Position numbers and translations under genes: made by a program | The notes under the pieces: model-generated | Told to the model about the DNA's origin: nothing | Database searches by the model: none | What the model saw: only the letters and a program-made list of their open reading frames with translations | Assembly (NCBI GenBank): GCA_965223435.1 | Contig: CBDCWQ010000023.1 | Location: 504,752 to 568,751, forward strand | Length of the DNA: 64,000 bases | Reading direction: 5' to 3' | DNA from: Myxococcota bacterium | GTDB lineage: Bacteria; Myxococcota; Kuafuiibacteriia; Kuafuiibacteriales; Kuafuiibacteriaceae | Shown here: positions 2,220 through 61,744 of the stretch, one piece after another | Layout: each line of letters starts with the position of its first letter | Numbering within the stretch: position 1 is the stretch's first letter

Positions 2220-2338
2220 CTCCCAGTGCAATACAACGCCGAGTTCGGCGACTCGAATTTGCCGTTTCTTTCCCAAAAACCGCAGGAGCATCGTTGACCT
2301 CGGCGGTGTGATGGTCTAAATTTAGTCGTTATTCTGTC

Positions 2339-11827: not shown

Positions 11828-11863
11828 CAACCCGAGCGGTCGCACCGTACCCGGTACTCCACT

Positions 11864-11947: not shown

Positions 11948-11952
11948 TCCAA

Positions 11953-34351: not shown

Positions 34352-37264
34352 GTGTTGGGGAATGACGGTACGCCCACCCTGCTGGTGGTGGGGCAAGAGG
34401 CATCGACCGAGGAGGTTCTTCGGGCCCTTGGGGCACTCTTGGACCTTGAGGTGCATTGTTTTTTGAGCGGCGAGGGGGTTCTTGACGCGTGGCCCATCGG
34501 GCGCCCGGCGGTGTTGGTGACCGAGTTTTTCCTCCCCGGTCTGGACGCACCCCGGCTTCTTCAGGCGGTGGGGCGGTCTTTCGGCAACAAAACGATCATT
34601 TTAACCCGAACGCAGCCCGCTTTTTCGCCGACGGCCCGGACTCGACTTGGCTTTGATGCGGTCGTTACGCGTCAGGGGGCTTGGCCATCCGCCTTGGCGG
34701 CGAGGCTCATCGATTGGGGACACCGCCCCTTGGATGCACGTGCCCAGGCGGTGCTTGCGGCCATGGGCTCTGAAGATCGCGGTTTCCGTTTTGTGGCGGA
34801 CGCGCTCATTGAAGATCGGTTGCCGCCGAAGACGGCGGCCTGGGCGCTTCGCTACTTGGTGGCTGTTTTTCCTCCGGACCGCGTTCTTGGGGTTCTCGAG
34901 GGGGTTCTTCGCCAAGAGGCCGAACCTCGTGTGTTTGAGGTCGCGAAGACGGCGCTTGGGTTGGCGGTGGGGCTCGGGGGTGCAGGTCTCGAGTTGGTCG
35001 AACTTTTGGCGATGTCCTCCCATGCGGAGCCTGCGCTTCGGGTGCGCGCCATGAGGCACCTTGCGGATCACGCGCCGCCGGGGTGGGCGCTTTCGGTGTT
35101 CGAGCATGGGCTTGGCTCGTCCGATAAAGCGGTGCGTCATGGCGCCGCCGAGGCCGCGCTTGAGAGTGCGCGGCGTGTTCCCGATTTGGGGGCAGCCACC
35201 GTGGATATGCTCCTCGAAGCCACTCGAGTGCCCACCCAGGTCCGGGTGGCGGTGCTCGACGACGTGCTTTCGACTCGGGCGTGGGCCGAGGCCCAACCGG
35301 TGCTTGAGGCCATGGCGACCAAGTCAGAAGAGGCTGTGGCTTCGCGCGCACGCGCGCTCCTTCAAGAGGTCTCGGCCATTGACGAAAAAGAGCTGGCGGC
35401 TTTGGCCGAGGATAGGACCAAGCCTGAAACGCTTCGGGTGGACGCGCTCCGTCTGCTTTTTCGCCGCGTGCGAGGGGAGGGTCTCTCGGTGTATCTGGCC
35501 TCCTTCAGAGGCCATCCCACAGAACGGCTCTGGCAGGTTGCGATGGCCCATTCCCTGACGGCTTCGCCCCGGGATCTGGAAGACGCCATCGAGCATGTGG
35601 CCGCCCAAAGCGAGGCGCAGCAACGCTTTTTGCTCCTTTCGGCTTTGGGGCTTGGTGCCCGGGGGGTGCCTGCGCTTTTGGCGCTGGCGCGATGCGAGGC
35701 GCTCGAAACCGCCGTTCGGGCGATGGCGGTCCGGGGTTTGGGGGTCGCCGGCGACGTGCCCCGGGCTCTCGCCCTTTTGGATGAGATCATTTGTTCATCC
35801 GTTTTGATGCTCGGACGTGCGGCCTTGATGTCGGCCGCACAGCTTGGGCGCGCCGGTGTGCCGGTCTTGGTTCGGGCTGCGCGGCGCGCGGTTTTTCCCG
35901 TGCTGCGCGCGGAGGCGCTGGTCCATGTTTTTGGCGCGGGCGACGAAAAGCGGCTGGTGGCGGCCGTCAATCACGCGAGTCGGGATCCGCATCCCCGGGT
36001 ACGATCGGTCGCGGTGCGTCTCGCGTTTGAGCGAAACGGCGCAAAGTCGAGGTCCCTTCTTGAGAAGGTGGGTCGTTCGGGCCGCCTTCCGATGCAGTGG
36101 GCGGCGCTCGAGGGCGTTTATGCGTTGGGCGAAGCGGGCTTTGGCCTTCTTTTGGACGTCGCGAAGGGTGAATCGCTTGGCTTCGACAAGCGGGTCCAAA
36201 GCGCTGCCCTCAAGAGGCTTTTTCGCTTTTTCGCGGAGGAGCGTGCGGCCATCGTCGACGCGGTCGGTCCCGAGACGGTGCGGGCGCTCGAGGAGGTTTC
36301 GAGCGCGCCTGACGAGGTTCCTCGGCCATCGCCCGAGGGCGCTCGGGGTGCGCCCCCCGAGGACGGTCCGCATGCGGCCGATGAAGAAAAAAGGGAAGCG
36401 GAACCCGAAGCCTGGGAGGTTGCGCCCACCCGCCCCCAAAAGCCGGCGTCCGCCGAGGGTTTTGAAGCGCATTCGGACCTGACGATTCCGGACATCGCCA
36501 AGAGGCCCCGTCGTGGCCAAAGCGATGATGGCGATTCGGAAAAAACGGTGGTTGAAGCATCGAGGCTGAGGCAGATTCGAGCCAGCCTTGCGTCCCGCAA
36601 AATCGACGCGCGGCGCGCGCAAAAGGCGCTGGAGGCGGCGCTTCGCATGGGACCGGACGGATTTCGGGGCGTGGCGTCCTTGGCCGATTCTGAGCGGGTT
36701 CCGGTCGAAATCCGTATCCAGGCGATTCGGCACCTGGGCGCCGACTTTCCCACGCGCCGGGTCCTACCGGTGCTCGAGCGAGGTCTCGAGTCGGGCGAAG
36801 GCGCGGTGCAACACGCGGCGCTCAGGGCCCTGATGCTCCGCGAGGACGCGATGCGCGCGCCGGTCGAAGCCCTGGCCACTTCGGCGTCCCCATCCTCGGT
36901 TCGGGTGAGAGCCATCCGATACCTGGCGTCACGGTGGTCGCGGCCGGACATCAACGCCATGCTGGAGAAGCTTCTCTTAGACCCGGAAGCCAACGTGCGG
37001 CGCACCGCACTCGAGTGCATGTTCTCATCGCTTCGGTACCTGCCTCCGGATCGGGTGGAGCAAGCGCTGATCAATCTTCTCCGCGAACACCGCTCCCAAG
37101 ATGTGAAGATTTCCGCAGCCAAGGCCCTGGCCGCCTTTGGTTCTCAGGCTGCCATCGATGCGCTCGAAGGCTTTGTGGGGATCTTCGCTGAGCCGGCGCT
37201 TCGAGATGCCGCCAGCGAGGCCATCCGGTGTATCCAGGCCCGCGCCCAAAAATCATCGCCCTAG
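34352..37264 (+). CDS. HEAT/PBS-lyase repeat protein (970 aa) with an N-terminal degenerate receiver-like (pseudo-REC) domain
   Basis: The N-terminal roughly 120 aa resemble a CheY-like fold (TLLVVGQEAS...AVLVTEFFLPGLDAPRLL...TIILTRTQP...GFDAVVTRQ), but the acidic pocket (DD) and the phospho-Asp (here Glu) are absent. Numerous HEAT-like repeats follow (VRVRAMRHLADHAP; VRHGAAEAALES; VRVAVLDDVLS; IRIQAIRHLGADFP; VRVRAIRYLASRW; VRRTALECMFS; KISAAKALAAFG). Confidence 0.7.
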   Translation: MLGNDGTPTLLVVGQEASTEEVLRALGALLDLEVHCFLSGEGVLDAWPIGRPAVLVTEFFLPGLDAPRLLQAVGRSFGNKTIILTRTQPAFSPTARTRLGFDAVVTRQGAWPSALAARLIDWGHRPLDARAQAVLAAMGSEDRGFRFVADALIEDRLPPKTAAWALRYLVAVFPPDRVLGVLEGVLRQEAEPRVFEVAKTALGLAVGLGGAGLELVELLAMSSHAEPALRVRAMRHLADHAPPGWALSVFEHGLGSSDKAVRHGAAEAALESARRVPDLGAATVDMLLEATRVPTQVRVAVLDDVLSTRAWAEAQPVLEAMATKSEEAVASRARALLQEVSAIDEKELAALAEDRTKPETLRVDALRLLFRRVRGEGLSVYLASFRGHPTERLWQVAMAHSLTASPRDLEDAIEHVAAQSEAQQRFLLLSALGLGARGVPALLALARCEALETAVRAMAVRGLGVAGDVPRALALLDEIICSSVLMLGRAALMSAAQLGRAGVPVLVRAARRAVFPVLRAEALVHVFGAGDEKRLVAAVNHASRDPHPRVRSVAVRLAFERNGAKSRSLLEKVGRSGRLPMQWAALEGVYALGEAGFGLLLDVAKGESLGFDKRVQSAALKRLFRFFAEERAAIVDAVGPETVRALEEVSSAPDEVPRPSPEGARGAPPEDGPHAADEEKREAEPEAWEVAPTRPQKPASAEGFEAHSDLTIPDIAKRPRRGQSDDGDSEKTVVEASRLRQIRASLASRKIDARRAQKALEAALRMGPDGFRGVASLADSERVPVEIRIQAIRHLGADFPTRRVLPVLERGLESGEGAVQHAALRALMLREDAMRAPVEALATSASPSSVRVRAIRYLASRWSRPDINAMLEKLLLDPEANVRRTALECMFSSLRYLPPDRVEQALINLLREHRSQDVKISAAKALAAFGSQAAIDALEGFVGIFAEPALRDAASEAIRCIQARAQKSSP

Positions 37265-40200
37265 GGGCGCGCGAGAAAGTCGATGTGGGCCGTAACGACA
37301 ACGGGTCCAAGACCCCTGAATCGAAAATTGAGGGCTTGATTGTCGCGGAGTTCTGCGAGTTCTGGTCCCGAAAATGCGCCAACGAGCTTACCGTTCTTGT
37401 ACAGGAGAAGCTCGTAGATGGCGCGAAAGTCGATGCGCTCGAGATCTCTTAGCTTAATAGGAGTGGAATGACCTCTCAGCGTCGCGGTATCGAACGCTAT
37501 CGTCGCGGACTGAAGGGGGACATGGTGTACGTCTAGGGTGTCTACATCGAACTGAGGGCGATCGACCTTCGGTTGGTCGAATACCTGCTGAGCGGCCCCC
37601 AGAGCCAGCCTTGGGTTGAGGAGACCAGGCACATCAGGATCGGTGGATGGTCGCATGGTTGCGCGCAGTACCGCCGCGATTTCGTGGGGTAGAGGGTCGT
37701 AATCTTGTTCCAAAGCTTCAAGCGCAAGGAGCGAAGCAACTGCAGATAAGTAGGGTGGGGTGACCGAAGGCGCTTCAAGTGGTTCAACCGCTGGAAAGTC
37801 TTTCGGAGAAATTTGACCACGGCGGACGACGGCCGAGGTGGCGATATCTACCCGAGCTCCATAGTTTGAGGAGGGTGAACGACGGGCTTCTGGATGATGA
37901 GACATGGCGCTGACACCGCCGACCACGAGTAGATTGTCATGGCGACTGCGTTCAAGCATGGCGGGGAAAATTCGATGGTCGGTCGCGGCCAAGTCGAGTC
38001 CCTCTTCTCCCCACCAAGCTTCAGGGTATCCACCCGCGGCGGTGTTCACAACCAAGATGCCCGCTGATCGGGCGCGATCAAGTATCATGTGGAGCAGAGA
38101 CTCGGCTTGCACAATTTGATCGTCCTGTTCATCGCTCTCGCCTTGTTGGGCGAACGTCGTTCTGCTCAGCGAAATGACATAGACGGGCTCTCCATCCGGT
38201 TCACCCCGATTGAACTTCTCTCGCAAGACAACCGCACCCAAAAGGGCCCGGGGTATAAGCGCATGTTCAGACTCTGTGTTTATGGGTACTCCGATCACGC
38301 CCAGCGTGCCTGGATCTACACTGGCAAATGGGGCTGCAAGTGTGAGTTCCTCTAAGAGAGCTTCGGTCATGTTCTCGCCGTGGGTTTCACCGGTGCGGTC
38401 GTCGATCACGCGATCGAAATCGTCCACAATGGCGACGACGGCCGTTGGTTTCTTGCCGCCTGCATATCCGTGGATGCGGCGAACCATAGAGGCAGGCAGG
38501 TTTTCGAGTTTGGCCAGGAGGTCAGTGGATGTGACCGGCTTCGTGACGGGTCTTTGTTCGGCAATGTGGGGAGTGACCGGACCCGAAAGACCCATGATGT
38601 GATTCTCTGCGGCCTTGCGGTCGAAGTCGCTTCGGATGGCGAGTTCGACAACAAAAAGCCAGGGGCGGCGGAAGCTTTCGGGTAGGGATTCGGTGATGGT
38701 GTTTACTTTGCGCCACAGGGCATGATTTTGGATGAAGGCCTCGAGCACCGCGGACCGGGGGTGCGTGGTGTTGAGTGTGTACACTTCCCAGAGGCTTCCC
38801 TCGGTGGGAGTGAGGAAGCCGACTTGGCCGGTGAGGGGGGACTCGAGGCCGGTCCAGTCGGCGCGTAGGTAGTAGATCTGTTGATTCTCGAACCGGATGT
38901 GGGGGCCGGTGAGGGGGTTCTTGATGTGGGTGGCCGTGTAGATGGGGAGCGTACGGAGGGCGGTTTCGTCACGAAGATAGGTGGCTAGAGGCGGAGCCAG
39001 GGTGGCTTGGGCGTCGATGACGCCTTGGGGGGTCCAAAAAGCGCTGGAGGGTATGTCGCTGCCGATGAACATCGTCTCGAGACCGGTGTCTACTTCGGTG
39101 CCCAAGCTGCCAAGATGACCGAGGGCGCTGCTTCCGGCCAATGCCGCGACGACCAGTTCCTTGGGAAGGCTGACGAGATCGTCGACCAGTTTGACCGCGC
39201 TGGCGGTCGTCCTGGACAAGGATTTGCCTCGGCCAAGGACAAGGGTGCTTCCGGCGTTATCTGGGGAGATATTTTCGGAGGGGGTTTGATCGCCGATTCG
39301 TCGGACTTGGTCACGGATAGAGGCGTCATCGACCGATTGCGTAAAAACTTTGTCGTCCGAATTCGCTTCAATGGGGACGGACTCGGTGTACACCATGGGC
39401 GCTTGACGTCTTTTGGTCGAAGGCTTCTGCTTCAGATCCAATTCTGATAATGGGTCGTTTGCGATTTCTTCGACCACCTGTCCGAGGAGATCACCCAGTA
39501 CGCTCTCGACCGAATCGTTTTTGGGTTTGAACACATCGAGTTCGTCGGGGTTGATTTCCATGGTGACGAGCACGTCGTCCGTTTCGGCCAAAAACTCGAA
39601 AAGCGTTTTGTTTTCTACCTTGCTCCGTATCCAGGGCGAGTCATGCAAAACGAGTGCGTCTTTGAGAGAAGGGGTCGTGTGCTGTTTGGCCGCAAGTACT
39701 TTCAGAATATCGAGCCCAAGATTACGTAGTTCGGGTGGCGCTCCGGCCCAGCTTTCGGCCCACTCCGCCGGATAGAAAACTTGACCGTCTTCGGTGCGGA
39801 AGATGTATTCGATGTAGTCCCCCGGCCTGCCCTTTTTCTTCTTGTAGATGGCGATCGCTACCTGTGCAGGGCCGGTCATGGTGCCAAATGATACCAGTAT
39901 ATTCTTGTGATCCGCATCGAATTTGGCCTTGAGCCCGACGGTGGTCACCGGAAGCCGCATCGGGTCAAGCTTTGCAACTTCCTCGTTTTCTCTCTTGTCC
40001 ATGTCAGAGATTCGTTCTTCTAGCGCCTCAATTACTTGAGAAAGACCTTTGGATGACGCGCCTTCCAGTTCGTTTACGAACTCGCGCGTGACGGCCGAAT
40101 GAACAGTCAGGTCTTTTGTTGCCCCTTCTGGGAGGCTGCCGAGAAACTCTCTGAACAATTGCTTAACGTCGACCCCGCTCAACGAGGACGTATAGCGTTC

Positions 40201-43200
40201 GGGGCTCAGGTTTCTCAAGTAGGCGATGAAAGCCAAGATGAGCGGACGAAGCTTTTCGAACTCTTGGGTGCGAAGGGATCGAAGAATGTAGCGGCAGTCG
40301 ATATCAAACGCATGAAACGGGAAGGCTCGGAGCTCCCGTGCCGTCAGTCCTTTACGCAAGGTTCGCGCGTTGCGCGTGATGATCGAAATATTTTCGAGGC
40401 GTCCCTCCTGGGTGAGAACATCGGTGCGAGGGTCGCCGAGTCGAGCTTCGTTTAGAATGAATGGGTCTTGGCTACAGTAGAAAATGAGAAGGTCGTACGC
40501 CAGAAGTTGAGCGTCTGTTTCGAGTGGGATGGTTCCGGCAATGGGATCAAAGTCTAAAGCTCGAATTTTGGGCGGTGGTTCCGCGGTAGGTGTGGCCCCG
40601 GAGGCGACCACCAGCATATCCACCACACCCCCTGGTTCGCGGCGCTCAAGAATGCTCGTATTCGCGCCGGCCTCAACAATGATGACCGATTCATGGGGGG
40701 GATAAATGCCCCGCCATAGACCGACCGCGGCGCGGGCGGCGTCAACCGATTCAAAAGCCAGACTTGGGCTCCCGTTCGCCACTGGACGAAATCCGGGGCG
40801 AACGCAAAGGATCCAATAGCCATTCACTTTTTGTGTTGAATACAATTCTCGAGACGGATCACAGTGCGCTTCGAGGGTTGACCCTTCGGGCATCGGTGCC
40901 GTGGGCACCAAACCAGACAGGGCACTGGCGAGCCATGGTGTCTGCGACAGCAAGGTCAAAAGAATCTCGTCGGTGAACTGCGCTCCGGCCTGGCCCAGCA
41001 AGGGGATGATGGAAACGCCGTTAATAAACGAGAAACCGAAGGTGGGTTGGTAAAAACGCGCAGGGTTTTGGGCTTCACCCTGATTTTCATCCGTGACCAA
41101 AAAACCGAAGGCCTCTTCCCCCTCCGCTTCCTCCAGTCGAGCCAGACCCAGTCCGTTCACCAAGGCTTTCTGAATCTCGGAAGGGATCTGGCCCTCTCGA
41201 AGAATTCGGTGAAGCGAGGCGGTGCCTAGACCCGACTGGTCCGCGGCGCGCGGCAGATTGCCGCCCGCATAGGTGTGGACGAAACGCCGAAAGGCGGATA
41301 CATTGGCAGCAAACGCATCATCTTGCGGGAGGGGCAGGTTTTGTAGCTGAACGCCTTGGACCTCTATTCGAATCTCATTTTCCGCCAGCGCGGCCCGAAA
41401 AAAGACCGATGACCGACGCCAGTACTGAGAAGCAGACGGATTGAGTGCATGAACCACATTCAGATAGGGTACCCTAAAAAGAACTGGGCCTTCGCCCTCG
41501 TGCGCCAGGATTTCCTGTACGCGAAGCTTGTAGCCTTGGCGAAGCCGGTCTTGGATTTCGGCCAATGGGGCATCCTCGTCGGTGTGCGAAGGCAAAGGCA
41601 TAGGGTGGCCACAGCTCAAGCAAGTTGCTTCTTTACCCCCCTCGACGAAGAATTCGCTCTGACCCCAGCGAAGGAGCGCCCGCAGTTCTTGCAAGACTTG
41701 ATAGGGAGCAAGGTATCCTTCTTGTTTGAGCGAAGCCTCAAAAGCCCCATCGGTGCCAATTCGGGCGGTGCGGAGACGGGCGAAAAGCCCAGACACGGCC
41801 TCGCAGGAAATGCCTAAGCCCTTCTCCATATCGGCGCGGGAGCCCGGGAGGCTCCACGGCGCCTCACACAACGTCAGGAGCTCTCGGTCGGTGGCAGAAA
41901 TCCAGTCGTTTTTGGACCGCGCATAGGTGTCTAACCACTCGGCCGGGGGCACCAAACTCGCCGCTTGGGCCAGTGCGAAACGCAGAAACACCAGGCGGTG
42001 AAAGGTCGTATCAAAATCACCGCCAAAAACGCGAGACACAAGCAGCGTGCGGACGGTGTCGTAGTACAGTGACAACAAGTTTTGTTCTAGGAGCAAAAAC
42101 GCCTTGTCGGCTTGCTCGGGTGCACCAAGAGCCCTGAAACCCGAACGATCTTGGGGTGTAGAGACCAAGGCCACGGGGAGGCCGTCTACACCAAAGACGC
42201 CGTTCGGAAAGATGGCCATAAGTGAAGCCGCCAGTACATCAAAAGCCGCTTCTTCTCGCGCTGCGGGCGTCCATGAAGCAAGAAGGTCCAGCGCCATTTC
42301 TTCTTGTCGAGAATCAATAGGGGCCAATGCTCGTCGGGCCAAGACCTCCATGGACAATCTTGCCCAACGCCGGCCATCGCGAACAGCCACAAAGTGATCG
42401 CGCCAGGCAGAAAAAGACGGTGCCTGCATCAAATCGGGAAACGATTCTAAAGACGAGGCGAGCGACGCCCGATCGGCCCGGCCCTCTTCCTCACTCCGCC
42501 GATCGCGGGATGCCCATGAAGCAAAGCCTTCTTGATCTTGGGCTCGTCGACGATCGAGTTCTGCGAGAAGGGCCTCCGCAAGCCCGACCTCTCCGACCTT
42601 TGCCGCGAATAGGGCACACATCGCGTATGTCTCGGGGCGGTCCGCGAGGTCTTTTTTTCCGTCCGCAAACACCGCCTGAATGGGAGAGAGTCCGGAACCA
42701 TTTGCGCAAAGTTCAAGGAGACGCACCTTTAAGTCTTCAGCCCTACCTAAGAAATCTTCGCCTGCGAGAGATGAGGCTGTGGCCCTGGACGCAAGACTCC
42801 ATGCGAAATACGCCAGGATGTTGTCGTCGATTTTGGCCATGGGGAGGTATTGCACCGGATAAGCGGCAAGGCCTGCACGAAAAAGCCCCGAAACCGGGCC
42901 GGAACCCTCGACGAATAGGACGGTTTGGAGGCTCTGTAGCCCCCGTATCAAGTCTGTCTTCGCATCGTCTTGGCCCTCTGCCGCGAGGAGCAGACCCGCG
43001 AGAGCATAGAGCACCAGCATCTGGGACCCTGTGTCCCGAAGCGCGTTCAGAGGTTGACCGGTCTTGGAATGAATCGCAACCGGAAACCCAAAAGCGCCTG
43101 GTCCTTCCATGTTCGGTCGAAAAGCTGACGCACGGAGCGGCGTGAGCCACGCCGTAGCTTGTGCGATGTCTCCTTGACCAAGAGCGACAAGCGACGCCAG

Positions 43201-48237: not shown

Positions 48238-48537
48238 TCAGCCACCGTCGACCGGAATGGTGAATCCAATGGCGCAGAGAACGTTGTATACGGGTTTGAC
48301 CTATGCGTGGCGAATAGCAATCGATTGGGTCAACGGTGTCAACGTCTTTTGGCGGCACATGCAAGACGCTGGTTGGATTGCAATGGGGCGGCCGGGTCGT
48401 TCCCGAGAGGGCATTGGCTAAAGGCCTTTGGGGGCACGAGTACCCGCTCCCATTCTCTTGCAAAAGCCGGGCAATCTGTCCGTCTTGCGCGGCCCCTCAC
48501 CGCCATTTGAAATCCCTCCTTTGTTGGCGATCCGACA

Positions 48538-51500: not shown

Positions 51501-54500
51501 GCAGCTGCGAAAGGTTCCCCGACAGCGAGGCGTAGTTGACGACGATCTCTTCGTCGGTCGTTCCGGCGACGACTCCGGGCGCCCACAGCGCTTTGGCTCC
51601 CGACGACACCAACGACACAGATTCGATAGGCACTCTCGGGCCGACGCTGGATTCTTCGTCCCAAACAACCTCCGCCTTCTTCCCATTCGCAAGCTTGAGC
51701 GTCCAGAGGAGCCCCGTTGCGAGGCCCATACTAAACTGCTGAGGGTGCCAGTAGTCGACCAAACCATGGACGGGGTCGGGAAGGCTATTGCGACCACCCA
51801 ACGCATTGAGAATCTTCTCCTCCCATTTTTTGAAAGCTTCATGTCCTGGGTCCCCGAATAGCCAGCGCTCTTGAAGAATGGGTGTGGTGGGCATGTCTGG
51901 TACGGGCGGAATGGTGATGCCAAGTTCATTGGTTTTGACCCGCCCGGTGACGAACGCTTTCGGCGCATCTCGCCCAATGACCTTGCGGTAAGCGGAGTAT
52001 TGCTCCAGGAACACGCGCTCTTGGGCTTCACGCACCCGATACCTTTCGTCTAGGGTCGCGCTGTGACGATAGCTTTCAGCCAAGGTTCCCTGGAGTGATT
52101 GTTCGTTTCGGACGATCTCATGGTCGGACAAGCCGGCCATGACCCCCGGTGCCCACAACTGGTCGCTATCGGACCACTCGATGCCGACGCCGGAGGAGTT
52201 TGCCTCCTTCCAGTGAATGGATACAACGTGCCCGTCTTCGTACGTGGCGGTGAACTCAACCTTCGAGGTGATGCCCAAGCCGTACCGGGAGTGGAGTCGC
52301 CACGATTCAAGCTGTTCTATCGTTTGCGAAGCAGGCCCATGTCCTTTGAGGTTCAAAACATGCTGCTCTGACCACTCTGGGAGCTTAGACCAAAACGCGG
52401 CTTGCTCGAGCGGATTCATAGAAAGTTCGGGCGGCTGCGTTCCGTCGGGAAGCACATCCGCCTTGGATCCGTTGATAAAAATCTCGGGTTTGAGCGACGC
52501 AGGCGGGGCCCCACGACCAATCAACTTGCGATAAGCTTCGTACGACTTCGACACCACCAAAGACTCCGCATTGAGCAGCATCGTTTGGTCTTCTTTTGTT
52601 GCCGTCTTCGACCACGCCCTTTGCGCCTGTTCGGTCATCCCGAAGTGGTACTGATGAAGCACTTCTTCGGCTGTCTTTCCAGGAATGCCTTGAGGCGCAA
52701 CAAAACTTTGTAGAACAACCGGGTCTTTCGTTTGGCCGGAGGGCTCGCTAGTGACAAGGGTCCGAGATTCAGTACCACCGTTGGGCCCCTCAGCCTCCCC
52801 GATGAAGATGCCATTTTCGTAGTCCACAATGATTCGGCGATCCTTGAGAATATTCATGCCAATGATCATCGCCGGACTGTCCTTGGAGGCGAACATTTCG
52901 TAGGTTGGGGAGTCCACAACAACCGCCGATGGGTTTTTGAAGACCGTTTGGCCAAGCCGAATCTCATCGAAAGTTCTGACGCCGTACACCTGGCCCGTAG
53001 CGGGTGCGAGATTCGCGGCTTTGGTGTTCATGAAAGAAAACGGACTGCCAGTATCGAAGAGGCCTGCAAGCGGCTTGCCTGACAGCTCGGGGAACACTTT
53101 GGTTTGACCCTTGAACAGCTCGAGACGCGCCTCGGCGAGGTCTTGGTAGTTCGGCGTCTGAGTGGTGTCTCGTGGGTAAAAGACAACGGTCTCCTCGTTG
53201 GGCTTGATCTCGGTGACGAAATTTTGAAGAAAGTCCGCCCCGAGGTAACCGTCGATATCGGACGGCACATCGTCTACCAAGAGAAGAGAAAGCTTGAACG
53301 GCGTGGCGCCCATTTCAACCCGGTTGAGATGGACGACGGTGCTGTCTATGAGCTTCTCTTCTTGGGGAACAATCGAAGATCCGCTCTTTCGGGCGCCTTC
53401 TTCTAAACGCTTGACCGCATCCTGGCTGATCATCGAAACCCCTCGACCGGAACTCAGCGCGAGGCGCACCGGCTGGCCGTCATAAATGAACGGCACCACC
53501 AAATGGCCGCTTTTGGTTTTCAGCAGTGCCGAGCTCATGCCTCTGCCCGAAAAATGGTGCTGGGGAAAACGGTTGCCAGCCTGGTCGGCGACAGTTGTAG
53601 GAGTGACCCACCATCGCCCGCCCCGCGGGACCGGGTAGGGCTTAAACGGGCCACTTGGTGGAGGGCCCGACATCACGATGAGACCCTTGATGTCTTGCAA
53701 GAAGCCGAGGCGACCGACCTCGTCCATGCCCTTGGTTTGCTCCAAAGCCCACCGCCAGATCGGGTGTTGGCCGTAAAATACTTCGAACTCTTGGTCTTTA
53801 TCGACGGTCAGCTCGTACACCGGCACCATGTCATTCGGCCGGAGGAGATGACTCGGAACATCGAAGGGAAAGGAGGCCAAGCCCCCGTCGAGTTTGGGTA
53901 ACAAGAGACCGTAGAGTTTGTCTTCTTCGAAGCGCACACTCCCCGTTTTGAGCCCGTCCTTGATCCAAGTCACCGAAAAGCCCTTGTCTCGAATGGCTGC
54001 CTCGTTTGCGGGAATGGGACCAAGCGCAAGAACATCAGAGGGCGAGATGTAGCCCTTGAGCTCCCAAAATTGGGGATCTGGGGTGTGGTAGAGGCGCGCG
54101 ATGCCCGTCCAGGGTTGGTGTTCGAATGTGAGCCAGGCCGCAATGGCACTGACGGACACGCCCCCGACTACAGCCCCCGTATACTCCGGTCCGATGCTCA
54201 GCGCCGTTTTGAGGCCGGGGAACAGCTTGACCAGATCATCCCAGACCTGACGAAGGCCTGAACGCGCCGCGTGGATGGCCACTTGAGCCCCGCCAAGTCG
54301 CACGAGCGCGTCCGTTCCGAACACCGGCGTGGTCACGCCTTCAGGGTGGAGGGTGATCGCTTCTTCGGCTCCGTCAAAAACCAAAGATGCACGAACGTTG
54401 GCGCTCTCGGGGTTCAGGTAATCGTACACATCGATAAACCAAATGGCGGCGGTGCTCGACAACAGCAACGTAGAAAGGTCCTGGATGCGCTGACTCGAGT

Positions 54501-57500
54501 ACGGAAACCCATGGTCGCGAACAAAGGCTTGAACCCCTCCCCACAGCGCAAGGGCCTGGTCACGAAAGAGGCCGGACTTGGGGTGATCGGGTCGAGCATC
54601 GGCAAACTTGAGCAGGCCGAGAATGAGTCCAGTGGTGGCCTCAAGGTGAAACGAACTCTCCTGAAGCTCGCTTGGCTCGATGTAGGGATCCCGAAAGGCG
54701 TTCTGAAAGTAGTGGGTACCGTAGTAATACCTGGTGCCAAATTGAAGCATTTTGGCAAACTGAAGTTCGGTATACTCGAGGCACCGCGCTAGCTTGTCCT
54801 CGAAGGCCTGGCCAAACGCTGGATCATCGTAGTTGACCGAAAGCGAGAGCCAGCTGCAATTGTCGATGGCCACATGTCGACTGGCATCAAAGGCGTGGGC
54901 GTGTTCGACGAGCAAGAGCGTGCCCCCGGTGATGACCCGGCCCAGGTTTTCTGATTCGAGGGCCGCTTCGATGCGCCGGCGTTTTGCGGGATCTACACCG
55001 GGGTGCCCGAGCGCAACACGGAGATCCTCTTTTTCACCCAGCTCGTCCCATAGGAGCGTGAAAATGCCGGTTTGGAGCGCATCGCGCCAGGCAATGAGTG
55101 TCTCGGGTTCGTCAATCTGGAGTGGGTGCGCGTGGGTAATGGCGTGGTTGAGAACACTCAGCACATCCAAGTTGTGCTCAGTGACAATATTGGTTGCAGC
55201 TACACGTTCTTGGAGCATGCGGTGCTCCGATGCGGTCAGCGTGTGGGCTTCGATCGCAACACAGGTGGACCCACTCCGACGGCAGCGCTCGACTGTCGGC
55301 ACCCGGTCTTCCGAAAAATCCTCATAACCGATGGCATCGAGAATGCTATAGTACCGCCATTCTTCCTCGGGATCTGTCGTGAGTGGCTGCCCATCGGCTT
55401 CTAGGGTATGGGGCGCACCGGCGTTCCGTAGCCCTTTTGTGGTCCACCCCGCGGTCATCAGGGTATGAACCTTACCCTCTGCGTCTTGCACCGCTCGTCG
55501 GTGTTCCTCGAGTCCTCGAAGACTGCGGTGGTAGCACGAGAGCAAAGCCGGTTGATCTTTTGCATCAAGACTTTGGTACGCGCCAGAAACAAGAAATTGC
55601 CCTAGACCGTGCAAGGCCCACGCATTGGCCCCGGTGACTAAACGTGCATCCTTCCAGTTGTCGCCATCGGTGTTCCAAGAAAAGGGCCAACCGAGAATGG
55701 TGTCATCGTGACCAACCACTGCGTGGGCACACAGTGACCGAGCGAGGCCTTGGGCGCGCGCGATGTCGTCCGGGTCCGCGCTTCGGGAAAACTGCGCCAG
55801 TGCGATGCCCTGCGTATAAGCCCAGGCCCGTTTAAAGCCTGCCAAGTGCCGGGCGTCCTGGTATTCTTCTTCACGAAAAATATGTTCGTTGGGGGCATCG
55901 GTGTTCTCGGGATCCCCCTCGTACTCGATCTGAAGAAGACCGTTCGCATCGTTGCCCTTCGTTTCTGGTCGCAGAAGGCGATCTCGAGCGGCCTTCGCGC
56001 GCCGGTAGTTGCCGTGGGCGTCTCCAGAAATCGTGGAAGCCACGAGCGTCGTGCCCTCGGGGCCTTCGGGGTCGAGTGAGGTGACAGCAAGAGCGACGGA
56101 TGAATCGTAAAAAGGCGTCCACAGCCTGGCTTGGCCCTGGTCCAGTTCGAGATCCACCACACCAGCTTGGGCACCCAGCCCCTGGCTTGAGCCAACACTT
56201 GCCTGAAGGTCTACGCCACCGGCCAAGGTGCTTTGCCTCTCATCGGACTCCACGTCTAAGCCGCCGGCCATGGTGCTCTGTTTCTCGTCGGACTCCACGT
56301 CCAAGGCCTCCAAGGGGATGCTTTGGCCCAATGCCTCCGATTCGATGCCCGGCTGTCCGCCACCGCCACCTCCGGTGCTCACCCGAACCGTCCCCTCCGC
56401 AGCAACACGCATGTCGTATTTGTTCTTCGCGGTCACCGTCAAAGCGGTGCTCCGGCCTTGCACGATCTCTTCGGGGAGATCGACACTAAGCTTGACGGCT
56501 TGGTCATCTTTGGAAGCTCGACTGGTGACCCAAGTAGGGCCGTGTCTCTCATCGGCGCGAAGCCACGCCGCAACAAAGAGGGTCTCGTGGGCGATGAACG
56601 TAGGCATGTAAAGCGGCGTCGGCGGGTCGCTTTCAGTCGACCCCTGGTAAATGGGTCGCGGCGTTTTTTGGCTGATGGCCGTGGTTTCGAAGAGGCCTTC
56701 ACCGAGCGCGCGGGCCACGCGGATTTGTGCGGGGTCGGCCCCGTAAAACAGAATGGCGAGATCACCGTCCGAGGATTGCGCAGGCGTTGGCAGGTGACCC
56801 ATGGCGATCTTTTGCGGGGAACCGAAGTGATGTCCGTCTGTGGCCTGGGCAAGGTAAATAGGATTTGGGTCGGTCACGGCAGAGCCGAGGCGAGTCTCGT
56901 AAACAAGGCTCAAACCATCCGGCCCCGACGTCAGGCGGGGAACGATCGGCCCTCGACCATGGCTCGGAAGGGGTGGCAGACTGAGAATTCGCCACGATGC
57001 GTAGGTTTCACCGATCCACGCATCTTGTCGCCACCCGGCTTCGACTTGGGTTTCGACGGGCGTCCACTCGAGCAGCCCACGCTCGATGGGCCACACCGGT
57101 TGAAGCACCTCTTGGGTCGTGGCCCTCGACCAAGCGCCAGCGACCAAAGGACGCTGGGCAATTTTGATCTGGTCCTCTTCGTGCCAACGGCCGTCGTGAA
57201 GATAGTAGTACCAGTCCTTGTCGTGTTCGACGGTCCCGTCGTACGCGTAAAAACGACCCTTGCCCTCGCCGTGATAGTAACGATGAGCCCGCTCGGGCTG
57301 TGATTCTTCGGCCTGCCGGCGCAGAACTTCCTCTTCGTCGAGTGGAGTGCGCTTCGGCCGGGTTCGATGGGGCTGCCAAACCTCCAAGAAGCCTTCCCTT
57401 TTTTGATGGGCATGGGCCTCGGGGCACCAGCTGAGTTCTCCTTGGTTGGTCGTTTTAGGGGAGGCCGGAGGGACCAGGGGACCCAATACACCACGCCAAT

Positions 57501-59235
57501 CTGGATTGCGAACTGGCTGATTATCCCAAAGTCGGTCTTGGAAGACAGCAATCGAGATTTTTTGGTCATCTATTTCGAGTGAGGGATTGTAGACCCACGC
57601 TTCTTCTTGGCGATACCGGTATGGGCCCATGGGCTCGTCGCTGCCCGGAGCGGGATCTAGTGCTCGGCTATACCGCTCAAGGGGGCGATCGGTGCAATAA
57701 CCGCAAGCCGAAACCTCGTCTTGACAGTCGGTGATATACACCCGGCGCTGCTCGACCACATCGGTATTTTTCGCACGTTTTTGGACATCAAAAACATTCT
57801 CGGGTGATCCCTCGAGATTCTTCAGGTAGTACACCTTGTGGGCCTCACCCCAGACGAGGTGCGACTGCAAGAGGCGATCGAATCCAACGTCTAGCCCTCG
57901 TTTCCATGAGGTACTGCTTGCGATCATTTGGGCAGGCTTAAAGCCCTGACCTTCGTTGTGGCTTTCACGAACCCACAACTCGCTCAAAGGCTCTTCTGTA
58001 TCCTCAGTTTGCTTCTGAATCCAAGACACGAGGACACGGTGCGCCAGGGCCGCAATTTTGACTTCGTTCACCACCCATCCCGAACCTGGGCGCGCCAGGG
58101 CCTGGGCGGGTTCGAAACTGCCCACCGCACCCGCTTTTTCGCTTCGATGGTATCGAACTTCGTCCCCGCCATGATCGGTGGCAAAGGCTGCGTGGGCCAG
58201 TGTTCGGTCCCCGACCGAAACCAACACAATGGCTGGCGAAGCCTGCGCCCGCCCCAGCTGCGCCACCACCCCCGGTGTTTCAAAGTCGCCCGGGCGGGTC
58301 TCGAAAGGCGCACTGCTCCGAACATGAATGGCCTCAGACGGAACCGACGGTGCGCTCTCCCCTTCTGGATGTTGGACCGTGGCGACGACAAAATAGGTCA
58401 CGCGTTCGTCCGGAGCCACCGGACCGTCTTCAAATACCCGGTCGCCCTCGACGGTGCCCCATACCTCTCCATTCCGAAAGATGCGGTAACGAAACACGCT
58501 CCCCGAGGGAATGGATGCGCCGTCTTCGAAAAGCAGCGGGGCTTCCCAGCTCAGGGTCACCTGGTCACCTCGCATGGCGGCTGAGAAAGCGCGGGGTGGC
58601 CTAGAGGCTTGGGGCGGGGAACGCTCTTCGCAAGGCGTCCGAAACGGCACGCCGGCCGCGTCCATATGAACAAAAAAGCCCGGGCCCTCCGGGAACCGTT
58701 GGCCGAATAGGATGGACTCGTATGCCTGCGCCTCCGCATTCCAGGCCACCGCCTGACTGAGCCCGGCCCCCCAGCAGGCTGGTTCTGTCGACCTCAACGC
58801 AAAGTTCCAGCCCTCCGAGTATTCTGCCGGAGCGGCCGCCTCGTTCACGGGTCCGCTCGTCACAAACTCAACGGCCTGCTTGGTGTAGACCCAGTAGCCC
58901 TTGGGGCCGTCGGTGCTTTCAGCCTCTGGATATTCGGCCTCAGTTGGGTGACCTGGAGCCTGTCCATCCTGGACCTCAAAAATTTTGAGTCCATGTTTCC
59001 GGACCATCAAATCATCCAGGCCATGGGGAAAAACCGCGAGGTTCCATCCGGGTAAGAAACGGTGGCGGTGCGTTTCGTTCGCGTGTACCATGTTTTGAGC
59101 CCCCTCTTGCCCAAAACCTTGGGAGGACCACAACATCCACCCCAGCCACCACGCAAGTTGTCCTGACTTTAGACCCATCCTCATCTCGCACTCCCTGTGT
59201 CGATCCGTACCCTTGCGAACCAACGCAAGAGCCAT
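48538..59235 (-). CDS. Giant (3565 aa) secreted multidomain protein with signal peptide, GWNL module, FN3, Asp-box/beta-propeller-like region, conserved central helical domain, a tandem retropepsin-like aspartic protease pseudo-dimer, and an HD-like domain. The likely start is an internal Met near 59181-59187.
   Basis: The signal peptide is MRMGLKSGQLAWWLGWMLWSSQGFG. The module RFLPGWNLAVFPHGL...GYWVYTKQAV...EGWNFALRS is followed by an FN3 (FRYRIFRNGEVWG...VTYFVVATV). The central domain is about 55% identical to the downstream paralog (RAWAYTQGIALAQF...ILGWPFSWNTDGDNWKDARLVTGANAWALHGLG; HYFQNAFRDPYIEPSELQESSFHLEATTGLILGL...VRDHGFPYSSQRIQDLSTLL). Two retropepsin-like lobes are present (DGQPVRLALSSGRGVSMIS with SSG in place of DTG; GLFDTGSPFSFMN with DTG intact). 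An HD-like motif follows (NGSHTSDV...AASFHDVEKE). Confidence 0.8.
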   Translation of the reverse strand: MALALVRKGTDRHRECEMRMGLKSGQLAWWLGWMLWSSQGFGQEGAQNMVHANETHRHRFLPGWNLAVFPHGLDDLMVRKHGLKIFEVQDGQAPGHPTEAEYPEAESTDGPKGYWVYTKQAVEFVTSGPVNEAAAPAEYSEGWNFALRSTEPACWGAGLSQAVAWNAEAQAYESILFGQRFPEGPGFFVHMDAAGVPFRTPCEERSPPQASRPPRAFSAAMRGDQVTLSWEAPLLFEDGASIPSGSVFRYRIFRNGEVWGTVEGDRVFEDGPVAPDERVTYFVVATVQHPEGESAPSVPSEAIHVRSSAPFETRPGDFETPGVVAQLGRAQASPAIVLVSVGDRTLAHAAFATDHGGDEVRYHRSEKAGAVGSFEPAQALARPGSGWVVNEVKIAALAHRVLVSWIQKQTEDTEEPLSELWVRESHNEGQGFKPAQMIASSTSWKRGLDVGFDRLLQSHLVWGEAHKVYYLKNLEGSPENVFDVQKRAKNTDVVEQRRVYITDCQDEVSACGYCTDRPLERYSRALDPAPGSDEPMGPYRYRQEEAWVYNPSLEIDDQKISIAVFQDRLWDNQPVRNPDWRGVLGPLVPPASPKTTNQGELSWCPEAHAHQKREGFLEVWQPHRTRPKRTPLDEEEVLRRQAEESQPERAHRYYHGEGKGRFYAYDGTVEHDKDWYYYLHDGRWHEEDQIKIAQRPLVAGAWSRATTQEVLQPVWPIERGLLEWTPVETQVEAGWRQDAWIGETYASWRILSLPPLPSHGRGPIVPRLTSGPDGLSLVYETRLGSAVTDPNPIYLAQATDGHHFGSPQKIAMGHLPTPAQSSDGDLAILFYGADPAQIRVARALGEGLFETTAISQKTPRPIYQGSTESDPPTPLYMPTFIAHETLFVAAWLRADERHGPTWVTSRASKDDQAVKLSVDLPEEIVQGRSTALTVTAKNKYDMRVAAEGTVRVSTGGGGGGQPGIESEALGQSIPLEALDVESDEKQSTMAGGLDVESDERQSTLAGGVDLQASVGSSQGLGAQAGVVDLELDQGQARLWTPFYDSSVALAVTSLDPEGPEGTTLVASTISGDAHGNYRRAKAARDRLLRPETKGNDANGLLQIEYEGDPENTDAPNEHIFREEEYQDARHLAGFKRAWAYTQGIALAQFSRSADPDDIARAQGLARSLCAHAVVGHDDTILGWPFSWNTDGDNWKDARLVTGANAWALHGLGQFLVSGAYQSLDAKDQPALLSCYHRSLRGLEEHRRAVQDAEGKVHTLMTAGWTTKGLRNAGAPHTLEADGQPLTTDPEEEWRYYSILDAIGYEDFSEDRVPTVERCRRSGSTCVAIEAHTLTASEHRMLQERVAATNIVTEHNLDVLSVLNHAITHAHPLQIDEPETLIAWRDALQTGIFTLLWDELGEKEDLRVALGHPGVDPAKRRRIEAALESENLGRVITGGTLLLVEHAHAFDASRHVAIDNCSWLSLSVNYDDPAFGQAFEDKLARCLEYTELQFAKMLQFGTRYYYGTHYFQNAFRDPYIEPSELQESSFHLEATTGLILGLLKFADARPDHPKSGLFRDQALALWGGVQAFVRDHGFPYSSQRIQDLSTLLLSSTAAIWFIDVYDYLNPESANVRASLVFDGAEEAITLHPEGVTTPVFGTDALVRLGGAQVAIHAARSGLRQVWDDLVKLFPGLKTALSIGPEYTGAVVGGVSVSAIAAWLTFEHQPWTGIARLYHTPDPQFWELKGYISPSDVLALGPIPANEAAIRDKGFSVTWIKDGLKTGSVRFEEDKLYGLLLPKLDGGLASFPFDVPSHLLRPNDMVPVYELTVDKDQEFEVFYGQHPIWRWALEQTKGMDEVGRLGFLQDIKGLIVMSGPPPSGPFKPYPVPRGGRWWVTPTTVADQAGNRFPQHHFSGRGMSSALLKTKSGHLVVPFIYDGQPVRLALSSGRGVSMISQDAVKRLEEGARKSGSSIVPQEEKLIDSTVVHLNRVEMGATPFKLSLLLVDDVPSDIDGYLGADFLQNFVTEIKPNEETVVFYPRDTTQTPNYQDLAEARLELFKGQTKVFPELSGKPLAGLFDTGSPFSFMNTKAANLAPATGQVYGVRTFDEIRLGQTVFKNPSAVVVDSPTYEMFASKDSPAMIIGMNILKDRRIIVDYENGIFIGEAEGPNGGTESRTLVTSEPSGQTKDPVVLQSFVAPQGIPGKTAEEVLHQYHFGMTEQAQRAWSKTATKEDQTMLLNAESLVVSKSYEAYRKLIGRGAPPASLKPEIFINGSKADVLPDGTQPPELSMNPLEQAAFWSKLPEWSEQHVLNLKGHGPASQTIEQLESWRLHSRYGLGITSKVEFTATYEDGHVVSIHWKEANSSGVGIEWSDSDQLWAPGVMAGLSDHEIVRNEQSLQGTLAESYRHSATLDERYRVREAQERVFLEQYSAYRKVIGRDAPKAFVTGRVKTNELGITIPPVPDMPTTPILQERWLFGDPGHEAFKKWEEKILNALGGRNSLPDPVHGLVDYWHPQQFSMGLATGLLWTLKLANGKKAEVVWDEESSVGPRVPIESVSLVSSGAKALWAPGVVAGTTDEEIVVNYASLSGNLSQLHTQNASFWEWKRLREAEGRFVWKEFLEEEWYKTHTEEPPSVIKPRVIKNTTPRPVPNPPSMMLYPTEQDDWAYKDLPEWSKKFLQKPAESVFVDAKRTWVKDYRPDHVQTSLGVATDMEWKALFTDGEIVIRWSAEDPQATGVTETSKPIRETGLPAKLGLVPNGSQEVELPTSLDSYPVVLKDGISEDSLHQNALKLKKNLVVLHGEFALSPRVVVPGERLASLNRGKKGLHIEQAAHVEDGPVGAFVQSLLKEASDSQLFIKIIDKFRNLAWYEENGLLATKNLPPQNMLYHGKAKLSQAQLRKKAILHQRDIVLFYSPEVNTFYATFFPHGPRAIRYEELRRLDEDFEYVGIAAYQADGDTRSSLELVLDSVDQLRGRKVNKTAGLSVTPANPLKSSDAYDQRTLVFSADKQLLSGWLFTSQQPFEPDKIFVLSEADSAHDMVQIKSSGSASDRFALIRASDLSLARAALALPFSITDYAFFVFNNPALANDVREHELRVQKAIEPHLSGESSFAVLATAYPPQKEPVYESTFSQDARLSSGPKPAKAKFPDEQTSAQVLALRRKYADQAREAGLSEIKAKYQKAPNPRANLNYHNGSHTSDVIQNGGKLLEVVRPHAPKTVTDSYALLYIVAASFHDVEKESHYDSSTGQRVDHSGQNEIDSAKHAREFMEQANKNEIVEVYSETDIRLVEEAILATETKVDGTTITLPNLTPQSSLLARILVITDLGVAFMNKPLNHFVEQSNLFFAELHTDIFRASPYLSDAQKKDYLTAMRGWQPRQNDFLTGFEHVLAEQTKFFPPDAVPEVSALFDVAKQKEGADVAALERSRMTDQPVLLAEDMDLDRMVRALTLETDIEGAIKRGRFESHTLDAKLVAHFITQPYEEPTAFFSVADGKLTPYKAFDLPVQPKKKFYVSTRLTSTEEVLADIEGVPGMQYAVYRTRDGIEVISNPASFGPKTPGPSFKGIDGTIWQVARIKLDNLNH

Positions 59236-59599
59236 GGGTTCACGACACTCCGCAAGCTAACGAACCCCCGAAGTGCCAAACCGCCCCGTCACGCGCCCAC
59301 GACAGGCGCCAACAAGGTTGCGGTTATGCCTAAACACCCACAAGCGACCTGTCAAGCAACCGACGCCTCGGCACAGAGAAAATCAAGAACCAACGCCCGC
59401 TTGAAGCCCTTCCGTAACCCGCACCACCCCACAAGGAGTTGAACCACTCGGGACGCTGGTTTTCGGTCCGATCGACATCGGGTTATTCCCCCCACCCCCC
59501 CAAAAAAAAAGCTCTAGCAGGCCATCGGAATAAGACGAATTTGAATTTCTGTTTCTGTCCTCTGTCCCCTGTCGCCAGTTCTCGTGCGTTGTTCACCGG

Positions 59600-60780: not shown

Positions 60781-60860
60781 GCAAAGAACGGACGACCTCG
60801 TCAAAACATCATCTATGAAAGGCGACAATATTGCTGACCGACTTCAGAACTTCGTAACCT

Positions 60861-61370
60861 GTGCACAGACGGGCCCACGACAATTTCGGTGAGCCGCCCC
60901 ATATTTGCCTTTGGCTGGCAAAAGCACCAGCAAGGAGGCAAAGATCAGTGACACAGAGAAAAGTTGGGCGTGGTTCCCAGGCTTCGGGCCGTGGCTCTAG
61001 GCGGCGCGGGGTTAGGGAGTCCCGGTTGGAGGGGATTCATCAGTGTTTCGAGGTCTTTCGTCGGGCCCACCGACCTGGCACCCGAATCCCAAACGACCTA
61101 CGGACGGCTACGCTGGAAGCGATGCGACAAGGCTTGAGTCGGGCCGAGGTGCGCCGCGTCTGCGGGGTGTCCTCGCAGCAACTCGATGCCTGGGAAAAAC
61201 GTGACGAGGCTGGCGCAATGAAAGCCGAGACGCGGAGGGTAGCGGCGCGCATGTTTAGCGTCGTGGATGACGACGACATTTCGGTGACGAGTGATGACCC
61301 GCCGGTGTTGGAGCTCCGTCTCCAAGGCTGGTCGGTGGCCCTTCGACGATCCGACAACGGAGTCTCCTAA
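60861..61370 (+). CDS. tnpA: IS66-family accessory protein TnpA-like (HTH). The N-terminal extent is uncertain and the true start may be internal.
   Basis: The C-terminal half has a TnpA-type HTH (TATLEAMRQGLSRAEVRRVCGVSSQQLDAWEKR). It lies directly upstream of tnpB with a 1-2 nt spacer, as in the IS66 layout. Confidence 0.5.
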   Translation: MHRRAHDNFGEPPHICLWLAKAPARRQRSVTQRKVGRGSQASGRGSRRRGVRESRLEGIHQCFEVFRRAHRPGTRIPNDLRTATLEAMRQGLSRAEVRRVCGVSSQQLDAWEKRDEAGAMKAETRRVAARMFSVVDDDDISVTSDDPPVLELRLQGWSVALRRSDNGVS

Positions 61371-61371
61371 T

Positions 61372-61740: not shown

Positions 61741-61744
61741 AAAA

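Follow-up and report, generated by a model that had tools for sequence, protein, structure and literature searches.

A tandem pair of giant modular proteins in a Myxococcota bacterium: a conserved, putatively exported scaffold with exchangeable C-terminal modules

What are two adjacent giant genes for, when their front halves match and their ends do not? The question is raised by genes A and B on the minus strand of a Myxococcota contig (CBDCWQ010000023.1), in the 64,000-nucleotide stretch analysed here (the window). As the first-pass annotation of the window had stated, two giant same-strand open reading frames (ORFs) lie side by side, at 48538-59235 and 37261-46929. They appear to belong to an undescribed family of giant, modular proteins of a Myxococcota-related lineage, which their leader-like N-termini mark as putatively Sec-exported. 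The sequences strongly support a conserved exported giant scaffold onto which variable C-terminal modules are shuffled. For the function, we favour, at about even confidence, glycan-targeted carriers of swappable hydrolytic or toxic cassettes that resemble polymorphic effectors and serve predation or competition.

Gene A is intact, and its true start is probably Met17 or Met19 by comparison with its close ortholog P0001 (P numbers denote family members and homologs). Gene B had been taken as a gene of about 3.2k amino acids. The 3222-residue ORF does exist but is a truncated piece, which has no leader and starts in a region aligning with A residue ~380. Its front lies upstream in two more pieces. 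Piece 1 terminates at a TGA made by a first frameshift, and piece 2 shows conservation in the shifted frame. The 326-residue ORF of piece 1 between A and B was also considered as an insertion sequence (IS) element and rejected, being B's own N-terminus.

With one base removed and one added in silico, B reads as an uninterrupted 3658 residues. A 63-1618 aligns with the corrected B 100-1611 over ~1,550 residues at 33% identity, a level that marks the two as old paralogs. The signal peptide, GWNL module and FN3 domain, described earlier as shared, are shared once the B pieces are joined into the 3658 residues but are absent from the 3222-residue ORF, and the FN3 matches are weak.

The two indels of B are confined to 262 nt and cancel each other out (+1 then -1), and no stop interrupts the other 9.7 kb of the gene. 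B is therefore either a very recent pseudogene or a carrier of local sequence or assembly errors. Such a compensating pair is an odd result of pseudogene decay, and equally odd as random sequencing error. The public protein collection holds only the truncated 3222-residue product (P0010), so the indels sit in the deposited assembly. As assembled, B cannot yield the full protein. The other large genes of the window, namely A, the RHS protein and the DUF3686 ATPase, are intact, with none obviously broken; the frameshift pair of B is the only one noticed in the 64 kb.

Programmed ribosomal frameshifting was considered for B and judged unlikely by reasoning on the sites. Site 1 (UUU UCG UGA) permits a +1 slip, but its stop codon is not adjacent, and site 2 is without a slippery heptamer; both count against programming. 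To our knowledge, a pair of programmed shifts in opposite directions, 262 nt apart, has no precedent.

The split between front and back recurs across the family. A word-indexed search with full-length A gave ten relatives, located on six large genome contigs; several of these contigs carry two or three paralogs. An exhaustive profile search with the central domain gave 254 representatives at 50% identity, 202 of them with E<1e-30. Family members are almost all 2,000-7,200 residues long, with the central domain 1,000-2,000 residues from the N-terminus. Scans of genome and metagenome contigs with the central-domain alignment found no relatives.

In a sliding-window survey of A and B over 153 representatives, the scaffold is common to about 70-153 of them, and conservation collapses abruptly right after the central domain. 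Segments of the A tail occur in 1-7 members. The last 430 residues of B, its subtilase tail, occur in 1-2 members by single-pass search and in 7 by iterative search. Tail modules are distributed patchily, in mix-and-match fashion, across the family. The survey of homologs for C-terminal swapping, which the first-pass annotation had proposed, thus turned out in favour of swapping: the scaffold is in ~70-153 members and the tails are in 1-7.

The divergence of the pair had been confined to the last 800-1500 residues. It in fact begins straight after the central domain, and ~1,950-2,050 residues differ. Between A and P0001, identity is 88% in the front (A 18-2167) and 72% in the tail (A 1882-3562), and P0001 has an extra inserted retropepsin pair relative to A.

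The front half runs in the order of leader peptide, GWNL module, FN3-like domain, sialidase-like BNR propeller and central domain, and every member keeps it. The leaders of A, B piece 1 and the homologs were judged by eye; the h-region of the A leader is unusually Trp-rich. The GWNL module comes directly after the leader in nearly all members and possibly serves trafficking or anchoring. A 483-residue protein elsewhere in the window has both this module and a lectin part sharing 54% identity with the C-terminal end of P0064, a family member, so the module and one tail type are portable as separate genes.

Pfam finds almost nothing in A and B besides A's retropepsin-like pair and a weak BNR_2 match in B, and no NCBIfam or PADLOC model matches either. 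Pfam fn3 has no match at E <=0.1 in A or B. When a six-member profile of the N-terminal scaffold was searched against PDB, FN3 structures were matched weakly at the expected position (E 0.025-0.3). Over the length of one blade, the same profile (A7) matches GH33 sialidases of bacteria (E 3.5e-7 to 1e-4), and Pfam BNR_2 reaches E 2e-4 in one relative.

The Asp-box region claimed for both proteins stands by this sialidase match and by the canonical boxes in B, but the boxes are degenerate in A. Some family members have Cys-rich insertions (CxCxxCWCEESY) in the BNR region. The position of the sialidase RIP motif, found by eye, reads SHPQV in B and IVPRL in A, suggesting that the RIP arginine is not conserved in the pair.

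The central domain is the most conserved part (A 1060-1625, B 1017-1613), with a mean column identity of 54% among ten members. The motifs quoted in the first-pass annotation, ILGWPFSWNTDGD and VRDHGFPYSSQRIQDLSTLL, are present and lie inside it. It has no Pfam or NCBIfam match and no PDB match at the sequence level by profile search. The AlphaFold2 model from a ten-sequence alignment is confident, with a predicted local distance difference test score (pLDDT) of 86.7 and a predicted template-modelling score (pTM) of 0.89; the two predicted structures of this analysis rest on shallow alignments (10 and 21 sequences).

The model is an (alpha/alpha)6 barrel. Its best structural matches are 6-13% identical with no single family standing out, and include the six-hairpin glycosidases and epimerases MmpH (7qsj), GH76 (4v1r), cellobiose 2-epimerase (4z4j), a GH15-related enzyme (5z3a) and GH8. 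Compared with these enzymes, the central domain has ~200 extra residues of beta-hairpin insertions. By Pfam, NCBIfam, the PDB profile search and the structural matches, it is not assignable to any characterised glycoside hydrolase (GH) family with identified catalytic acids. The structure prediction that had been called for thus gave a six-hairpin fold and no characterised family, and the domain as modelled represents an undescribed six-hairpin (alpha/alpha)6 family.

The central-domain alignment also found stand-alone homologs at 31-37% identity, P0154-P0156 (427-561 residues) and P0157 (1024 residues). Fifty-two residues are conserved from the giants to these distant homologs, many of them Trp or Tyr. 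They include, in A numbering, D1196, R1198, E1353, H1354, D1357, R1433, D1458, N1459, D1516, H1530 and E1532. Such an acid- and aromatic-rich set is as expected of a carbohydrate-active site, and catalysis may be supposed from it.

One stand-alone homolog, P0154 (556 residues; L081 8001-9671, GCA_023247795.1, JAHFFT010000036.1), is without an obvious leader. Its gene lies between a secretin gene and an OEP/MFP/RND (TolC/RND) efflux operon, and its stop overlaps the OEP start by 4 bp. This neighbourhood suggests the cell envelope but is not decisive.

What follows the central domain is often introduced by a domain that we call module X. Iterative search found it in 75 of 155 members, A and B included, always after the central domain and before a tail of ~170-2,000 residues. 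A search seeded with the A copy recovers the B copy in round 2 at E 4.9e-19, and the reciprocal search confirms it. It has no structural match in PDB. In about half of the members, therefore, the back half appears to be built of cassettes, each introduced by module X.

Four proteins (P0006, P0015, P0045 and P0116) carry two X-plus-tail cassettes in one reading frame. In P0006 the two are 49.5% identical over 545 residues, and the whole ~550-residue cassette is duplicated. The C-terminal parts of A and B had been called unrelated. Their tails do differ, with no homology found by BLAST and hhalign comparisons apart from module X, but this module (~200-300 residues) is homologous in both and sits at different positions; homology between the tails is limited to it. 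A second X-like domain at the extreme C-terminus of B, proposed by BLAST from A 1710-1846 (E 0.002), was rejected at an hhalign probability of 0.1%.

Module X starts with a hydrophobic helix, and the most hydrophobic stretch of A lies in this module. If the helix were a stop-transfer anchor, the scaffold would be a periplasmic glycan sensor and the tails would act in the producer's own cytoplasm, in an abortive-infection or signalling style. The RNase III and phosphodiesterase (PDE)/HD-type tails of the family, with cytoplasmic substrates, would suit such a sensor-effector, and swappable effector ends are a hallmark of defence systems too. Against this, the helix has a median Kyte-Doolittle value of 1.43 over 19 residues, with 18% of the copies at >=1.6 and none at >=2.0.

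Moreover, the charges flanking the helix oppose the positive-inside rule for the topology needed, and in a chain with two homologous X-plus-tail cassettes the equivalent tails would lie across the membrane from each other. The low hydrophobicity, the opposing charges and the topology of the duplicated cassettes together disfavour the membrane anchor, and no PADLOC model matches. We regard it as very improbable.

The A tail begins, after module X, with the retropepsin-like pair that had been reported. Pfam Asp_protease_2 matches A 2051-2128 with 33.9 bits above its cut-off of 24.3, and gag-asp_proteas matches A 1919-2005 with 23.2 bits below its cut-off of 28.2. The first half reads SSG with the catalytic aspartate lost and the second DTG, and the ortholog P0001 has STG and DTG. 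The A pair thus lacks one of the two aspartates (one D-T/S-G per half) that clan AA requires. In the family alignment, most other pairs keep the aspartate in both halves. The tandem repeats that follow are present in 6 other family members.

The end of A carries a metal-site motif ('YHNGSHTSDV…FHD…D'), with YHNGSH at 3175, FHD at 3217 and the D of VITDLG at 3305. Its positions (H, H, H-D/E, D) are invariant in three members and align to the metal site of PDE4 and PDE7. The PDB sequence searches gave PDE4/PDE7 at E 0.24-0.44, and Pfam gave no match. The HD-like domain claimed here thus holds as a motif and not beyond that level.

In gene B, a second helical region follows the central domain. 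It has no PDB sequence match, and its reading as a duplicate of the central barrel was not supported (hhalign E 0.03-0.06, together with the missing PDB match). The subtilase-like end of B, marginal by single-sequence search (E 0.19-0.2) and without a Pfam match, proved homologous to S8 peptidases once a family profile was used. A profile of six tails matches AprV2 at E 2.5e-13, BprV at 3e-12 (AprV2/BprV range to 9e-12) and subtilisin BPN' at 1e-8, over the half from the oxyanion Asn to the catalytic Ser.

As a candidate triad, B has D (AIVDD, 3269-3273), H (THG, ~3286) and S (APS, ~3490). The Ser aligns; for the Asp and His, the family alignment alone shows candidates. B has Gly (AAGG) in place of the oxyanion Asn, and the Ser position is Ala in P0007 and Thr in P0087.

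Tails elsewhere in the family are diverse. Pfam found RNase III with a double-stranded RNA-binding domain (dsrm) in 1 of 15 members scanned, and most tails of the 15 were without any match. RNase III signatures are present in P0073, P0108 and P0119, HExxH zincin motifs in nine tails, and GH16-like and ConA-like lectin domains in further members. Outside the tails, residues 223-346 of P0004, near its N-terminus, are Amidase_2-like (E 5.5e-5; 23.9 bits, short of the cut-off of 26), which hints at a peptidoglycan-directed activity in some members. The GH16-like region of a PKD protein in the window matches the C-termini of P0124, P0128, P0140 and P0146 at 26-30% identity, with E down to 1e-22.

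Such tails raise a plainer explanation, in which the giants are ordinary though very large hydrolases that combine several enzymes outside the cell and serve to scavenge nutrients. The six-hairpin and sialidase-like domains would degrade a polysaccharide and the tails (proteases, GH16, lectins, phosphodiesterase or nuclease) would broaden the substrate range, with no antagonism or delivery into other cells involved. The glycoside-hydrolase-type fold of the central domain, its conserved acid- and aromatic-rich residues and the GH16-like and lectin tails all suit a digestive role; subtilases and zincins are common secreted digestive enzymes, and missing immunity genes fit enzymes harmless to their producer. 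On the other hand, RNase III with dsRNA binding, the RNase III-signature tails and the cyclic-nucleotide PDE-like tail point to mainly intracellular substrates. The extreme tail turnover between paralogs and close orthologs and the dedicated junction domain are atypical of catabolic enzymes, several catalytic sites are degenerate, and no CAZy-type sequence family was matched. We hold this explanation rather unlikely.

Alternatively, the giants may stay with their producer as adhesin- or S-layer-like surface or matrix proteins, which bind or remodel its own exopolysaccharide in gliding, biofilm or aggregation, with the tails as surface diversification. Surface proteins typically have a leader, FN3-like and Ig-like domains and folds that bind glycans. 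The GWNL module after the leader could be an anchor and is also used by the small lectin protein, and a stand-alone central-domain homolog adjoins secretin and outer-membrane genes. No anchoring signal (lipobox or C-terminal sorting domain) was seen in the sequences, however. Nuclease, PDE and peptidase tails are hard to fit to a structural role, and the tandem duplication of cassettes resembles payload multiplication, making this proposal improbable.

Table 1. Features of genes A and B and of their surroundings in the window
Feature	Coordinates	Strand	Remarks
Gene A	48538-59235	minus	intact giant ORF, 3565 aa, ATG start
A leader	59101-59187	minus	signal-peptide-like segment (MRMGLKSGQLAWWLGWMLWSSQG/FGQ), read from sequence; conserved in P0001
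A GWNL N-terminal module	58636-59061	minus	two GWN[LF] motifs; family-wide, portable
A FN3-like domain	58321-58623	minus	weak, repeated FN3 matches in PDB profile search
A sialidase-like BNR/Asp-box beta-propeller region	56536-58278	minus	profile A7 against PDB
A central domain	54361-56058	minus	(alpha/alpha)6 six-hairpin glycosidase-like barrel (model)
A module X	53665-54294	minus	A 1648-1857, directly after central domain
A retropepsin-like pair (pseudo-dimer)	52786-53595	minus	Pfam, family alignment
A three tandem ~200-aa repeats	50956-52785	minus	pairwise BLAST E 5e-21, 4e-10, 2e-6
A 360-aa segment	49876-50955	minus	common only to A and P0001
A C-terminal module	48541-49875	minus	PDE/HD-like metal-site motif and ~170 aa more
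Gene B piece 1	47257-48237	minus	326-aa ORF: signal peptide (…LLLLLSPKMMAHA/NT), 'SQGWNL' module, FN3 start
B frameshift 1	47262-47265	minus	T4 run, one T too many against conserved frame
Gene B piece 2	46930-47256	minus	FN3 end and linker, ~90 codons; covered by ORF 46851-47249
B frameshift 2	about 46999-47004	minus	CACCGGGG (CC/GGGG run), one base absent; original frame restored
Gene B piece 3	37261-46929	minus	3222-aa ORF, GTG start; identical to public protein P0010
B BNR/Asp-box region	45340-46929	minus	canonical Asp-boxes SMDGGLGF, SDDDGQLW; weak Pfam BNR_2
B central (alpha/alpha)6 domain	43399-45189	minus	48% identical to that of A
B second helical region	41158-43398	minus	in 83 family members, absent from A
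B middle module (570 aa)	39451-41157	minus	elsewhere in family sits after module X as tail
B module X	38533-39450	minus	B 2930-3235, 1,300 residues after central domain
B S8 subtilase-like module and ~170-aa C-terminal domain	37264-38532	minus	profile A2 against PDB
HEAT-repeat gene	34352-37264	plus	970 aa, convergent with B, ends overlap by 4 bp
IS4/IS5-type transposase ORFs (DDE_Tnp_1)	59483-60296	minus	~250 bp upstream of A
IS66-type element (helix-turn-helix ORF and DDE_Tnp_IS66 ORF)	60861-63868	plus	upstream of A
GWNL and ConA-like lectin protein	3206-4657	plus	483-aa ORF: leader, GWNL module, lectin (Laminin_G_3)
tRNA-Leu	11863-11951
RHS-repeat protein with C-terminal lipase (Lipase_3)	11953-19275	minus	2440 aa, classical polymorphic toxin
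PKD and GH16-like protein	21334-23481	minus	715 aa; GH16-like region about 22024-22794
DUF3686 ('ATPase involved in DNA repair'), DUF7902 and AAA_5 protein	25298-30787	minus	1829 aa
694-aa ORF	30959-33043	minus	upstream of DUF3686 protein; no Pfam or PADLOC match

The architecture recalls the polymorphic toxins exported by Sec and the type II secretion system (T2SS), which combine signal peptides, beta-propellers, pre-toxin domains and subtilisin- or metallopeptidase-type releasing peptidases (Zhang et al. 2012, PMC3482391). Like them, A and B have a leader-like N-terminus, a long conserved presentation region with a beta-propeller and a conserved domain before the variable end (the pre-toxin domain there, module X here). 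In-built peptidase domains and hypervariable C-terminal enzymatic modules swapped between paralogs or strains are further likenesses. Unlike them, A and B have no adjacent immunity gene and no catalogued toxin, pre-toxin, RHS or filamentous haemagglutinin domain. Moreover, the scaffold consists of two glycosidase-type folds, the tails can exceed 1,500 residues with multiple domains, and some proteins of the family have two in-frame cassettes.

The RHS/YD-repeat toxins, with an example in this window, are likewise large and join a variable C-terminal enzyme domain to a conserved body. A and B differ in having no RHS repeats, RHS core or cleavage motif, and the scaffolds are unrelated. MARTX toxins are very large secreted proteins with exchangeable effector arrays that vary among strains and an in-built processing protease. 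Type I secretion, glycine-rich repeats and a cysteine protease domain characterise them; none of the three was seen in the A/B family, which has a Sec-type leader and unrelated scaffold domains.

The 'Archaeovorins' of Omnitrophota are giant proteins of putative predators in which a GH76-like (six-hairpin) fold occurs together with S8 and further peptidases, with proposed roles in prey cell-wall degradation and self-processing (bioRxiv 10.1101/2023.11.21.568195). They belong to a different phylum, are about ten times larger (>30,000 residues) and have many transmembrane segments and other domain sets. No sequence relationship to the A/B family was found, and the Archaeovorin paper does not report exchangeable tails on a conserved scaffold. 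The earlier statement that the domain combination is undescribed agrees with the lack of any Pfam, NCBIfam or PADLOC model for the scaffold and with literature searches that found no description.

Under the favoured reading of glycan-targeted cassette carriers, the front half would bind, and perhaps cut, a surface glycan on another cell or polymer, and this binding would position the protein. The variable cassettes would be the working ends, as hydrolases or toxins, perhaps set free by the peptidase-like domains of the protein itself or else at module X. The overall mode would be that of polymorphic effectors or of multi-effector toxins of the MARTX kind.

Several observations weigh against it. 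No small immunity-like ORF lies downstream of A or B at this locus: the 300-bp gap between A and B has no plausible ORF, and B is followed by the convergent HEAT-repeat gene. An 'Imm-HEAT' immunity family is in the polymorphic-toxin catalogue (PMC3482391), and the HEAT-repeat gene beside B is atypical for it in size and orientation. None of the tails has a match among catalogued toxin or pre-toxin domains. Enzyme-like modules are degenerate, as in the first-half Asp of the A retropepsin pair, the oxyanion Asn of B and the Ser of its relatives. With the signal peptides read by eye, export beyond the inner membrane is putative, and glycan binding or cleavage by the scaffold is suggested by fold and conservation only. 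Of the label given to the pair earlier, a polymorphic toxin or predation factor, the architecture stands and is now family-wide, but the functional part is a hypothesis, with immunity gene and catalogued toxin domain both missing.

A bolder version, which we think rather doubtful, makes module X a self-contained delivery or release domain that defines an immunity-gene-free class of Sec-dependent polymorphic effectors. Its Gly/Ala-rich amphipathic helix and a fold without a PDB match would form a translocation or autoprocessing unit. With a scaffold that docks on glycans, predatory Myxococcota-like bacteria would then bring exchangeable cassettes into or onto prey cells, RNase III- and phosphodiesterase-type enzymes among them.

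Around the pair, the IS elements do not flank the block as had been stated. Both the IS5-type and the IS66 elements lie upstream of A (59483-63868), and the other side is the convergent HEAT-repeat gene. No sigma-70-like promoter and no intrinsic terminator were found in the gap between A and B, so their co-transcription is neither supported nor excluded.

Farther off, the RHS gene directly adjoins the tRNA-Leu gene. The DUF3686 protein and the 694-residue ORF upstream of it on the same strand could be a two-gene system. The window's PurF is 67-68% identical to its best matches, from metagenome-assembled genomes of Myxococcota or 'Deltaproteobacteria'. This places the source in a myxococcote-like lineage that has no close representative in the collection searched, and a predatory lifestyle of the source organism is plausible.

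Even conservatively, the central domain is a candidate for a new glycoside-hydrolase-like family, and its stand-alone homologs suit biochemistry. If the reading as cassette carriers is true, a sizeable unannotated family (>=254 clusters at 50% identity) would follow the logic of a conserved carrier with a swappable warhead, made from new parts: a six-hairpin glycosidase-type family, the portable GWNL module and a junction domain that marks cassette exchange. It would be a source of new enzyme or toxin modules and of a new recombination or processing junction. Its members would then be candidates for the attack on other cells by non-model predatory or competitive Myxococcota-like bacteria.

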